The notes under the pieces were generated by a model, which worked only from the letters and a program-made list of their open reading frames with translations, was not told the DNA's origin and ran no database searches. The position numbers and the translations under genes were made by a program. Of a DNA stretch of 34,941 bases, positions 16,151-29,930 are shown in pieces. Origin of the DNA: Patescibacteria group bacterium (GTDB lineage: Bacteria; Patescibacteriota; WWE3; UBA101185; UBA10185); contig JBAQUF010000007.1 of the NCBI GenBank assembly GCA_049297375.1, positions 1 through 34,941 of the forward strand. Direction: 5' to 3'. Position 1 is the first letter of the stretch. Each line of letters begins with the position of its first letter.

Positions 16151-16888
16151 TCAAGTAACAACGTAGGGTCTTGGTTTGTGTAACCCCCCCTCTATAGATA
16201 TCACTTGGCCGTTTATATACGAAGCATCTTCCGAGACTAAAAACCTTATTACTTTAGCTATATCAATCGGCATTGCATTTCTTTTTAAAGGATTCATTCC
16301 TGCTACCTCATCCAAAAATTCTTGTCCCTCCCCCTTTGTCATATTTGTAATTACCCACCCAGGTGCTACTGTATTAACTAAAACCTTTTTCTCTTTAAAC
16401 ATTAATGATAGTGATTTTGTTAAAGAATTTATCCCTATCTTGCTTGCAGCGTAAGCAGCAGTAACCGTACCTCCATAAAGAGCATCGGTTGAGCTCGTCA
16501 TAATAAATCTTCCATTATTTTCCATATTGTCGATAAATATTCTTGCTAAGTAATAATTACCAGAGAAATTTGTAGCTATTGTTTTGTCCCAGATTTGTAT
16601 ATCCTTTTCTATTCCTTTTCCCTCAAAATTTAGTATTCCAGAATTGTTAACTATTGCAAAAATGTTTCTGGAGATTTTTTTATGAAATTCTTCAACTGAT
16701 TCCACATTTGAAATGTCGAATTGTAGTGATTCGAAATTATCATATTTTAGTAAATTATCTACTCTGGTTGGATGTTGAAAATACGTTCCAATCACTGAGT
16801 ACCCCTGCTCTAATAAAAGTTCCGAGGTTTTGTTACCAATACTTCCCGAGGCACCGACTATGATTATAGTTTTGGAAGAATTATCCAT
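16151..16888 (-). CDS. short-chain dehydrogenase/reductase (FabG-like)
   Basis: 245 aa with GASGSIG dinucleotide motif, NNSG, and catalytic YAASK. Confidence 0.88.
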   Translation of the reverse strand: MDNSSKTIIIVGASGSIGNKTSELLLEQGYSVIGTYFQHPTRVDNLLKYDNFESLQFDISNVESVEEFHKKISRNIFAIVNNSGILNFEGKGIEKDIQIWDKTIATNFSGNYYLARIFIDNMENNGRFIMTSSTDALYGGTVTAAYAASKIGINSLTKSLSLMFKEKKVLVNTVAPGWVITNMTKGEGQEFLDEVAGMNPLKRNAMPIDIAKVIRFLVSEDASYINGQVISIEGGLHKPRPYVVT

Positions 16889-16894
16889 GGAAAT

Positions 16895-16903
16895 ATTATA
16901 TCA
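16895..16903 (-). promoter_or_regulatory. extended -10 (TGaTATAAT) 6 nt before the SDR ATG
   Basis: On the - strand: TGATATAAT (16903-16895), then atttcc, then ATG at 16888. No SD. Confidence 0.55.
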
Positions 16904-27945: not shown

Positions 27946-28021
27946 TGGCGCACCTGGCGGGAATTGAACCCACGACCTTTTCCTTAGAAGGGAACTGCTC
28001 TATCCGCTGAGCTACAGGTGC
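27946..28021 (-). tRNA. tRNA-Arg (anticodon TCT), CCA encoded
   Basis: The reverse complement GCACCTGTAGCTCAGCGGATAGAGCAGTTCCCTTCTAAGGAAAAGGTCGTGGGTTCAATTCCCGCCAGGTGCGCCA has anticodon loop CTTCTAA. It lies 4 nt from tRNA-Leu. Confidence 0.88.
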
Positions 28022-28032
28022 AAGTATCCTCT

Positions 28033-28038
28033 ATTGTA
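28033..28038 (-). promoter_or_regulatory. candidate -10 (TACAAT) for the tRNA-Arg/tRNA-Leu pair
   Basis: On the - strand, TACAAT lies 11 nt upstream of the mature tRNA-Arg 5' end, with AT-rich upstream sequence. Confidence 0.4.
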
Positions 28039-28095
28039 TCTAATTTTATATAATTTTCCATAACTAGACGTTTTTGTAAATGTTATACTGAAAGT

Positions 28096-28268
28096 AACTT
28101 AGAGAAAGGAGACTTATGAAGATAAATACCCTCTTAGGTAATTTGTCCGGTGTATAACCAACAGATCGCTGTCGTCCCATTCTACCCATGGGAAAAAATG
28201 AATCGTGGGGGGTAATGTAATGATTCATTCACCTGAGCAAAGGGTAGTTTATTGCTCAGGTATTTTTA
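28096..28268 (+). ncRNA. candidate transcript unit 1 (unclassified small RNA or leader-like RNA with a 13-codon ORF)
   Basis: Extended -10 TGtTATACT at 28081-28089. AAGGAG followed by ATG at 28116 opens a 13-codon ORF. There are hairpins at 28176-28194 and at 28197-28229. An intrinsic terminator follows (10-bp stem 28231-28240 with 28252-28261, then atttttat). The start coordinate is estimated from the -10 position. Confidence 0.4.
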
Positions 28269-28350
28269 TGCTTCATAAGCCTAATATACAGTCTTTTTAA
28301 TCTACATCTTATAGTTTGACAAGATTTAAATATTATGATATATTTCCTCT

Positions 28351-28631
28351 ACTTAATCTCCACTCAGCCTAAATATAGGCTAATCTCAAGGTGGAAGGTT
28401 AATAGGGGCGTCCTCTATTAATTCTGATCTGTCCCCGCGACCTTAAAAGGAGGAGGAAGAGCCATGAACTGGCCCTAGCGATTCCACTTAGGTCAAATAG
28501 AAAAAAAAACAAAAAAGGTCCGTCTACCATAAACTGAGTTTAAATTATCATCTTAGCTTATGCGGACAAAACAATTTGAGGAGTTCGTAACAAACCAAGA
28601 TAAAAGTAGATTATCTTGGGTTATTTTTTTT
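28351..28631 (+). ncRNA. candidate transcript unit 2 (unclassified structured RNA, ~280 nt)
   Basis: Promoter: TTGACA (28316-28321), 17 nt spacer, TATATT (28339-28344). Several perfect or near-perfect hairpins follow. The terminal 9-bp hairpin (28595-28603 with 28611-28619) is followed by gtta plus eight T. There is no ORF above a few codons. Strand and ends are not proven. Confidence 0.4.
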
Positions 28632-28634
28632 ATG

Positions 28635-29882
28635 CTACTTTCTAGATCTTAAAATCTTCCCTATTTCTTGCTGAGGCATTCTAATCTTTCTTGGTACAGT
28701 TGCTAATGCAAATACTGCGGATGCAGAAAGAATAATACCTGTAGAAATAAAAGATAGACCATACCCCCACTTTTTAACAACAAATCCCAAGAAAATTGGA
28801 CCTATTGTATAAGCTAAATTTCCAGAAAACTGTCCAATACTTACAAGATCGTGTCCTGCTTCATCTAATCTTGTTACATAATCTTCAAACACAGCAAATA
28901 AAAGTATATTTGCAATATCTATAAAAACAGAAGTTAATAAAACTAAACCTAAGATAACAAATATATTATTTGAAATTCCAATCAAAGCTAAAGTAACACC
29001 AGCTAAAATTCCAGCAATGAAGGAAGTTCTTTTCTTTCCTAATGGTTTAAATATATATGGAATAACCCACCCTATAAACATGGTAGGAAGACAGTAAAAA
29101 ACTAAAAAGAGACTTCCCCACTTGCTTTGTTGTCTTAATTGTTCGGCATATAAAACTCCTGTTGACCAAAAAGCTACATCTAAAAGAGTTGTAGTAAATC
29201 CATAAATAACCAGAACCCATATTCTTTTTGTTAAAACCTTTAATATATTTAACTCTTTCCAGAAACTTCTGGGTTTTTCTCCTTCCCCTGCTTCTTTAGC
29301 ATGCTGTCTTCCAAACATTCCTATAAAGAAAAAGAATAATAGTACAGAAGCTGTAGTAAGTATTAAAGATGCATAAAGAGGAAGTTCGGTATTTTTAGTA
29401 AGTAAAAATACAGTAACAGCAGGACCTAACATATAAGAAGCTGATTGAAATATAGTCATGATAGCCCAAGCTTCTGTATTCTTTTGAACAGGTAAAAACC
29501 TATGAACAAAATCAAACTTTGAATAACTTCTAAGTTCGTAGTAAACGGACCACACAACCATAGCAAATACAAAAGGAGCTAAATCTCTTGGCAGGTATAG
29601 GAATATGAGAGGAAAAGCTACTGCAAATATCAACATCCAAATCATAAAGAATACATAGTTTCTTTTGTTGAAAAACTGAGCAATTATAAAATCAAAAAAC
29701 ATTCCAAAGAGAGAAGAAGTAGATAAAACTAGTCCTACAAGAAGTGCATCGTGTAACTTTTCTTGAACGATAACGGGAGCCATGTAAGACATAATTCCAT
29801 CATGAAGAGATACAAGAAAGATAATAAAAGAAAATACAAATAACGGAATATATGCTCTAAACTTTGGAGCAGGGACTTTCAT
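28635..29882 (-). CDS. MFS transporter
   Basis: 415 aa with about 12 TM helices in a 6+6 layout and a charged central loop (RQHAKEAGEGEKPRSFWKE). Confidence 0.8.
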   Translation of the reverse strand: MKVPAPKFRAYIPLFVFSFIIFLVSLHDGIMSYMAPVIVQEKLHDALLVGLVLSTSSLFGMFFDFIIAQFFNKRNYVFFMIWMLIFAVAFPLIFLYLPRDLAPFVFAMVVWSVYYELRSYSKFDFVHRFLPVQKNTEAWAIMTIFQSASYMLGPAVTVFLLTKNTELPLYASLILTTASVLLFFFFIGMFGRQHAKEAGEGEKPRSFWKELNILKVLTKRIWVLVIYGFTTTLLDVAFWSTGVLYAEQLRQQSKWGSLFLVFYCLPTMFIGWVIPYIFKPLGKKRTSFIAGILAGVTLALIGISNNIFVILGLVLLTSVFIDIANILLFAVFEDYVTRLDEAGHDLVSIGQFSGNLAYTIGPIFLGFVVKKWGYGLSFISTGIILSASAVFALATVPRKIRMPQQEIGKILRSRK

Positions 29883-29930
29883 GTAGTAATGATATCAGTT
29901 TAGAAAAAGATAAGGAAATAATTTATATCG

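Follow-up and report, generated by a model that had tools for sequence, protein, structure and literature searches.

The sequence analysed here (the window, 34,941 nucleotides of contig JBAQUF010000007.1, assembly GCA_049297375.1) belongs to a Patescibacteria group bacterium of the WWE3 lineage and has ~32% G+C. Within it we examined a small unit on the + strand of a 613-nt intergenic stretch (28022-28634). The stretch lies between a tRNA-Arg(UCU) gene (27946-28021, - strand), from which the unit is divergent, and a gene for a major facilitator superfamily transporter (MFS_1, 28635-29882, - strand), with which it is convergent. The unit combines a promoter, a four-codon open reading frame (mini-ORF) led by a Shine-Dalgarno (SD) tract, and an intrinsic terminator. 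The nearest genome in the species collection, L001, is a metagenome-assembled genome of the candidate division WWE3 within the candidate phyla radiation (CPR)/Patescibacteria, and its MFS protein is 93% identical to that of the window. NCBIfam assigns the MFS protein no specific subtype, so no functional link between transporter and unit can be argued.

Orthologous loci were fetched by two routes, through MFS homologues and through one motif scan of metagenome contigs. They provide six distinct versions of the unit, five from WWE3 and one from Parcubacteria, which fall into a short form (window, L001, L073 and L216) and a long form (L003 and L067/L068). The L001 version, retrieved by a genome scan with the MFS protein, recurs in L002 (via an MFS homologue) and L063 (via the motif scan), with an MFS identity to the window of 92-93%. 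L003 was found via an MFS homologue (88% identity), as were L073 (62%) and L216 (61%); retrieval of the last two by the MFS protein was independent of the motif. L067/L068, from the motif scan, have no MFS gene at the locus. They come from a 0.1-um groundwater fraction, and their host is taken to be a member of the Parcubacteria because the neighbouring S41 peptidase is closest to Staskawiczbacteria proteins. Pairwise alignments scored against shuffles gave z = 18 for window/L001, 8.9 for L073/L216 and 6.1 for L003/L068. The remaining pairs are near random, with z of 1.2-3.3 between the groups window/L001, L003 and L073/L216.

Four-codon frame, promoter and terminator

The mini-ORF ATGAACTGGCCCTAG (28464-28478, +) reads ATG AAC TGG CCC TAG (Met-Asn-Trp-Pro-stop) and is followed by C28479. 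It is the only match in the window to ATGNNNTGGCCNTAR, for which 0.01 would be expected. Across the six versions the frame is ATG-(AAC/CAT/CAC)-TGG-CC(C/T/G)-TA(G/A), with start and stop in frame in every case; it encodes MNWP* in the window, L001, L073 and L216, and MHWP* in L003 and L068. The 15-mer varies at positions 4, 6, 12 and 15, all but one of them sites of synonymous type (hypergeometric p ~0.03). The base 3' of the stop is C in five of the six versions, compared with 7 of 29 window genes. In close relatives from DNA runs X2-X5 (~90-95% identical), substitutions and indels occur to either side, and 28430-28487 is free of them. The first-pass annotation listed the mini-ORF as a minor detail, presented by a hairpin (agagcca-tgaac-tggccct, 28458-28476, +, with one A.C mismatch). 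The frame is indeed present, but its minor rank does not survive comparison, as ATGAACTGGCC.TA is the sole block left invariant when the four short forms are aligned with MAFFT. The local hairpin around it (GCCA-UGAAC-UGGC) is missing from L073, L216 and L003, and RNA structure therefore does not explain the conservation of the mini-ORF.

The SD tract of the mini-ORF, AAGGAGGAGGAAG (28447-28459, +), had been noted earlier as the first of two purine tracts and proves to be conserved, as GGAG 6-9 nt 5' of the ATG in six of six versions, with unrelated spacers. Such tracts are uncommon here: an SD-like motif precedes only 5 of the 29 gene starts in the window (p = 0.10), so a conserved, strong SD ahead of four codons stands out. 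A -10-like TAnnnT box lies 4-8 nt 5' of the ATG in 12 of the 29 long window ORFs (p = 1.4e-4, against a background of 13% of all ATGs with such a box), which points to mostly leaderless mRNAs for the genes of the window; examples of leaderless-type starts are at 29880-29897 (-) and 16886-16903 (-). No ORF of at least 20 aa is conserved on either strand. A 43-aa - strand ORF and a 30-aa + strand ORF were rejected as genes, neither being kept in L001 in frame or sequence. Extension of the mini-ORF by readthrough or frameshifting was also discarded on reading the versions, in which the in-frame continuation runs from 6 to ~60 codons without conserved sequence.

A sigma-70-type promoter, TTGACA with a 17-nt spacer and a TG-extended TATATT (28316-28344, +), matches the consensus at 11 of 12 positions. 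The exact TTGACA and the 17-nt spacer are kept in all six versions, whereas the -10 box differs among them (TATATT, TATAGT, TAGCAT, TACCAT and TAAGAT). The pattern TTGACA-17-TAnnnT occurs once in the window, but at least once in 51 of 100 shuffles; the window alone is thus weak against chance, and significance comes from the relatives and the RNA data. Directly 5' of the -35 box is CTTATAGT (28308-28315, +), an element of consensus CTYATAGT found in all five WWE3 versions (window, L001, L003, L073, as CTCATAGT, and L216). It could be an UP-like element or the site of a regulator. As a separate observation, the promoter region alone finds a match in two contigs of the landfill-metagenome run X5, one over 28306-28342 and one over 28312-28349 (~37-38 nt, with 7 mismatches in each case). 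Beyond the match both contigs run on into sequence unrelated to the window, which in one of them has a GGGAGGAA tract; promoter cassettes of this kind may also drive small units at other sites.

The predicted transcript spans 28351-28631 (+), from an A 7 nt past the -10 box to the T8 tract, and is put at ~230-280 nt. It would end at an intrinsic terminator (28595-28631, +) with a 9-bp stem, a 7-nt loop and T8, the hairpin occupying 28595-28619. The stem differs from that of L001 by one compensatory pair (A-U to G-C), and in the five WWE3 versions the terminator lies 221-336 nt past the predicted start. In every version the stem is followed on the + side by a T-run. Its - side counterpart, a U-run, is weak or lacking in L003, L073 and L216.

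Around these parts lie further RNA elements, all of which are present where the first-pass annotation placed them. A 5'-proximal stem-loop domain (28359-28395, +) has a closing helix UCCAC/GUGGA around AGCCUA-AAUA-UAGGCU (arms ccac 28360-63 and gtgg 28391-94; inner hairpin agccta-aata-taggct, 28366-81). It is common to six of six versions, too few for formal covariation, and recurs with changed sequence: UCCGC/GCGGA in L073, CUUCAC/GUGAGG in L003 and, for the inner hairpin, GGCUU/AAGCU in L007. Other elements fared less well, and the proposal of a conserved multi-helix RNA fails on them. The 9-bp hairpin at 28400-28420 (+, with one G.U pair, which G28406>A turns into A-U in one close relative) is lineage-specific, being partly deleted in L001 and missing from L073, L216 and L003. 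The second GAGGAG tract (28578-83, +) is not conserved. The 3' hairpin gtccg/cggac (28518-22 with 28563-67, +) has a hairpin of different sequence at its position in L001 (GACCUG/CAGGUC) and no counterpart in L003, L073 or L216. An A9-C-A6 linker (28501-28516, +) corresponds to A-runs 14-29 nt past the stop in the window, L001, L003 and L068 (not an independent case, since the retrieval pattern required A7), and its absence from L073 and L216 means that it is not a defining part of the unit. A helix gacct/aggtc (28439-43 with 28490-94, +) completes the set.

Minimum free energy and centroid folds of the six versions are strings of local hairpins. The + strand of the window folds with z = -2.35 (7 of 200 shuffles fold equally well) and the - strand slightly better, with z = -3.25. 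It had been suggested that pyrimidine tracts sequester the SD; in our calculations its mean probability of being unpaired is 0.21, a value attained by 9 of 40 control sets with shuffled flanks (mean 0.25), which lends the suggestion no support. The covariance-model search proposed for the unit returned no Rfam match: no family of Rfam 15, with 6S, SRP RNA, RNase P, tmRNA, T-box and riboswitches among them, reaches its gathering score on 28316-28631, and at E-values up to 10 the only match there is TCV_H4 on the terminator, at chance level (24.5 bits against a cut-off of 50). No Rfam family was found on the homologous units of L003 and L068 either.

Transcription, gain and loss of the unit

Expression evidence comes from L001. 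A look for RNA runs with the window's own variant or with L068 returned none. Five of the six activated-sludge metatranscriptome runs that contain words of the L001 unit were examined. Runs X9-X12 each have one discrete contig of 191-200 nt that is 100% identical to L001:5306-5505 (about 28362-28583 of the window), and the fifth, X13, has a shorter contig of 153 nt (L001 5307-5459, 100% identical). No contigs fall on the flanking MFS gene or tRNA in the same runs, and over 9.2 kb nothing else is seen apart from a weaker contig that two runs have on a methyltransferase-like gene upstream of the MFS gene. One end of the unit's contigs lies 11-19 nt past the predicted start. The other is constant, ~10 nt short of the terminator stem, and could be a processed 3' end or an artefact of priming at the hairpin. 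The polarity of promoter, SD-led ORF and terminator indicates that the RNA is very probably read from the + strand. The unit is transcribed, its RNA is abundant, and its conservation is concentrated in the SD and the four codons. The earlier proposal of a promoter-driven + strand transcript ending at a hairpin and T-run is thus strengthened, with promoter and terminator in six diverged versions and a discrete, abundant RNA in L001.

The unit comes and goes as a whole. L075 has a clean deletion from the promoter through the left arm of the terminator, with the MFS gene kept and the hairpin lost along with the unit, and L214, L215, L217 and L004-6 also keep the MFS gene while the entire module, promoter to terminator, is missing. 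L007-9 have a diverged unit in its place. This homologue (e.g. L008 1407-1700, -) has an SD-led ORF of 19 codons, MYREFCFVTKGKVIRLIRN*, lacks MxWP and keeps a recognisable inner 5' hairpin; as the ORF replaces the MxWP frame, the locus swaps small ORFs between lineages. Such patchy loss and replacement among relatives marks the module as discrete and accessory.

The long form (L003 and L068) has an additional SD-led ORF1 of 20-25 codons between the 5' stem-loop and the MHWP* frame (MIVLNKIFTANFFSSFDLRF in L003, MIADKSRRSMALVANYYCISSTITA in L068). The DNA of the two is collinear, in blocks that include ORF1 and MHWP*, and the ORF1 peptides share ..A-N-[FY]-[FY].., with tandem Phe codons in L003 and tandem Tyr codons in L068. 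The presence of the long form in both WWE3 and Parcubacteria suggests horizontal transfer or old ancestry. Relatives of L068 with ~70% identity in the S41 peptidase have no unit at that locus. Located 5' of the L067/L068 unit (L067 1825-2544, -) is a gene whose protein, by eye, looks like an excisionase-type helix-turn-helix domain joined to a response-regulator receiver. This protein might regulate the unit.

The tRNA-adjacent region is a hot spot of rearrangement. Directly beyond tRNA-Arg, an HNH endonuclease gene is found in L001/L002 (L002 4819-5298) and in L073 (1818-2294). In the window, L003 and L008, tRNA-Leu and then typA/bipA occupy this side, separated in L003 and L008 by a small DUF5652 gene. 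On the MFS side of their intact tRNA-Arg, L004-L006 (e.g. L005 1397-1700) contain a partial second copy of it, the 5' and 3' portions split by ~110 nt of unrelated sequence; this arrangement might represent a pseudo-tRNA, the scar of a recombination event or an insertion resembling an intron. In the window, a second small stand-alone unit (Unit 1, 28081-28267, +) occupies the same intergenic stretch. It consists of an extended -10 box (TGtTATACT, 28081-28089), an SD (AAAGGAG, 28105-11), a 13-codon ORF, MKINTLLGNLSGV* (28116-28157), and a terminator-like hairpin (28232-39 with 28253-60) that leads into a T-run. Close relatives in X2 and X4 have Unit 1, and it is missing from L001.

A phage connection was sought in two ways. 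A blastn search against 50,697 phage records returned no match to the unit. The combination SD-MxWP* was considered as a general phage signal and rejected, as phage contigs have 53 matches, against 38, 27 and 73 in codon-permuted controls. The phage-like contig L071, which encodes an M23 peptidase and a zinc-ribbon protein, contains SD-MNWP*-A8 (mini-ORF 1285-1271, -). Past it lies a sub-threshold match to manA-RNA (1226-899, -; 28.8 bits, with the cut-off at 55.2) that has no relation to the units of WWE3. The permuted-codon controls mark the viral matches as chance, and the same probably holds for the L071 mini-ORF.

What the unit may do

So, is this a gene, and what would its product be? 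We tentatively favour, at a little under an even chance, an independent, strongly promoted gene for a stable mini-mRNA whose function would be the translation of a tetrapeptide with slow termination at Pro-stop-C. High RNA levels, observed in L001, would result from the consensus -35/-10 promoter and be sustained by the 5' stem-loop and the 3' terminator hairpin, both putative stability elements. In a genome of otherwise mostly leaderless genes, the SD would recruit ribosomes to make fMet-Asn/His-Trp-Pro. In E. coli, a proline in the P site or at the C terminus and a C after the stop are poor, slow contexts for termination, and for this reason slow termination is expected here. At Pro-UAR-C the ribosome might dwell on the RNA, or a short peptidyl-tRNA might be released; by analogy, one of these is likely the proximate product. 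The output could be the tetrapeptide, or else translation and termination as events in themselves, and would not be a downstream gene, because the next gene is convergent.

Several points weigh against this interpretation. E. coli is the source of the argument from poor termination. That the frame is translated, that it terminates slowly and that anything follows from this are predictions from sequence, which counts against the proposal as far as translation is concerned, and with SDs so little used in the genome, efficient SD-led initiation is an assumption. The tetrapeptide is not indispensable to the locus, as the L007-9 unit lacks MxWP. Only six versions enter the comparison, and the pattern that retrieved L068 demanded the motif, including the A7 run. 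The metatranscriptome contigs are unstranded and end ~10 nt before the stem, so that both the 3' end and the strand are derived indirectly. Finally, in phage contigs SD-MxWP* is not enriched over permuted codons, and the motif is therefore specific to this family instead of a general bacterial or phage signal.

Untranslated regulation is the first alternative. The RNA could be a regulatory small RNA (sRNA) in which GGAG...AUGAACUGGCCYUAR serves a partner (protein, mRNA, rRNA or tRNA) as its binding site or seed, and the look of an ORF is incidental. We consider this unlikely, though it fits the abundance and discreteness of the RNA, the rare use of SDs in the genome and the 5' stem-loop and terminator, which are arranged as in trans-acting sRNAs; moreover, the seed is usually the most conserved part of a base-pairing sRNA. 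Such a seed does not predict that three of the four varying sites are of synonymous type, that start and stop are always in frame, or that the GGAG keeps SD-like spacing despite differing spacers. The local hairpin that might present it is not conserved.

A bolder version of the favoured proposal, to which we give only a small probability, is that the unit is a natural, horizontally shared, stand-alone minigene of CPR bacteria in which the translation event is the product and acts on its own ribosome or tunes pools. The peptide or its slow release could clear or block a ligand in the exit tunnel or peptidyl-transferase centre, like laboratory E-peptides. Alternatively, it could tune pools of free ribosomes or tRNA-Pro in an organism with mostly leaderless mRNAs.

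Improbable, in our view, is a cis attenuator that works by convergent transcription. Here the position of the ribosome on the mini-ORF would determine how far the terminator is read through, for example by a stall at UGG for want of Trp-tRNA, or at Pro-stop, and read-through would carry antisense transcription into the convergent gene, either the MFS gene or, in L068, the gene for a 97-aa membrane protein. The downstream gene is convergent in both independent contexts, a coincidence with a 1-in-4 chance, and the ORF contains Trp. The tandem Phe or Tyr codons of ORF1 recall amino-acid-sensing leaders, although the mini-ORF itself has one Trp codon and none in tandem. Between stop and terminator lie 60-117 nt, and inspection revealed no conserved alternative pairing that could act as an antiterminator. 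Contigs of the RNA end short of the MFS gene, and relatives that keep this gene do without the unit.

About equally improbable is a neutral or decaying remnant in a variable intergenic hot spot beside a tRNA, whose promoter fires and whose RNA has no function. The presence of the unit is patchy and its neighbours are unrelated or variable, as with Unit 1 in the window, the 19-aa ORF in L007 and the HNH gene nearby in L001 and L073. Decay does not sit well with the persistence of the SD, mini-ORF, exact -35 box and 17-nt spacer while flanking sequence has become near random (the pairwise z of 1.2-3.3 given above), or with a homologous long form in another CPR class.

Least probable of all is a - strand RNA, either the 3' untranslated region of the MFS transcript or a processing product of that region, a caveat of the first-pass annotation that the - strand fold, the unstranded contigs and the constant end at L001 5306/5307 (just past the MFS terminator and conceivably a sharp 5' end) would suit, yet which loses out to the lack of a conserved - strand promoter at that end, the lack of any MFS mRNA contig in the same runs, the T-run on the + side of the hairpin, the loci that keep the MFS gene and lack the module (L075, L214, L215, L217 and L004-6), and the L068 unit with no MFS gene at all.

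Likeness to known systems

Several established classes were considered for the unit and set aside. ARAGORN finds six tRNAs only in the window and no transfer-messenger RNA, and the mini-ORF has an SD and an AUG, unlike the SD-less, AUG-less tag frame which that RNA carries beside its tRNA-like domain. The unit does not match 6S RNA (RF00013), and its folds are not a rod with a central bubble. A sponge of the CsrB/RsmZ type, with its many GGA motifs in hairpin loops, might be read from GGAGGAGGAAG in the window, but L001, L073, L216 and L003 have a single GGAG(AG). Leader-peptide attenuators of the trp/his/phe type were rejected, as the next gene is convergent in the window (MFS) and in L068 (the 97-aa gene, -), the mini-ORF has a single UGG, and tandem codons are confined to the optional ORF1. 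No conserved alternative pairing of antiterminator and terminator was seen by inspection or in the folds of these few sequences. A TnaC-type leader does not fit a 4-aa peptide with A- or U-rich, C-poor sequence after the stop and no downstream gene. An E-peptide-type resistance minigene is likewise ruled against, with M-N/H-W-P off the consensus fMet-(bulky)-(Leu/Ile)-(hydrophobic)-Val.

The CPR/Patescibacteria are uncultured episymbionts with reduced genomes, and to our knowledge almost no regulatory RNAs have been described for them. Our search of the literature found no regulatory RNAs for CPR bacteria and nothing relevant on MNWP/MHWP or leaderless translation in Patescibacteria. The locus offers a regulatory-RNA candidate with expression evidence, from a blind spot in which a four-codon ORF is invisible to gene callers and the RNA is unmatched by Rfam. 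If its mini-ORF is translated, the locus would rank with the shortest conserved genes on record, and it would give a counterpart in nature to the minigenes, met so far mainly as oddities of phages or as constructs of the laboratory. Should the translation event be the product, the unit would represent a new class of gene whose product is neither a protein nor a classical RNA. The strong SD amid mostly leaderless genes also provides a handle on SD-dependent initiation in such organisms.

Stand-alone, abundant transcripts that combine structure with a small ORF are familiar from dual-function sRNAs, such as SgrS/SgrT, SR1/SR1P, RNAIII/hld and rnTrpL/peTrpL of Sinorhizobium, and the unit resembles them in this respect. 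Their ORFs have 14-43 codons, however, and their base-pairing targets are mapped. With the trpL and TnaC leaders it shares a short SD-led ORF with Trp, a Pro-stop end and an intrinsic terminator on the same small transcript. TnaC is a peptide of ~24 aa with W12, D16 and P24-stop, followed by rut/boxA after the stop and by tnaA downstream. In contrast to these leaders, the unit has no co-directional gene, a single Trp and a peptide too short for the exit tunnel, and no conserved 2:3 / 3:4 alternative helices were found in it. The E-peptide or pentapeptide minigenes of Tenson and Mankin reportedly confer macrolide resistance in cis, and the known cases are said to be selected in the laboratory or cryptic in 23S rRNA. 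They too have SD-led ORFs of 4-6 codons; an E-peptide acts on its own ribosome and needs high expression, and its C-terminal sequence matters. The unit differs from them as a dedicated natural gene and in MNWP being off their consensus.

Minigenes have also been described in the axe-txe operon (PMC8708949) and as toxic or regulatory frames with hungry codons (PMC2490762). Of the known systems, it is minigenes that the unit most resembles: like lambda bar and the axe-txe minigene it has a strong SD and a very short frame, to which most versions add an A-rich tract 3' of the frame, and the expected effect would likewise arise through translation and termination (short peptidyl-tRNA, sequestration of tRNA or ribosomes), not through a folded protein. 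The lambda bar minigene has two codons (Met-Ile) and lies within a phage transcript. The unit here, compared with bar, has four codons and a conserved peptide, is equipped with a promoter and a terminator of its own, and resides on the chromosome of CPR bacteria. An SD followed by an ORF of 2-6 codons is what defines a minigene of the lambda bar type; judged by its sequence, the unit is such a minigene, and it differs from the known ones as a conserved, self-contained chromosomal gene.

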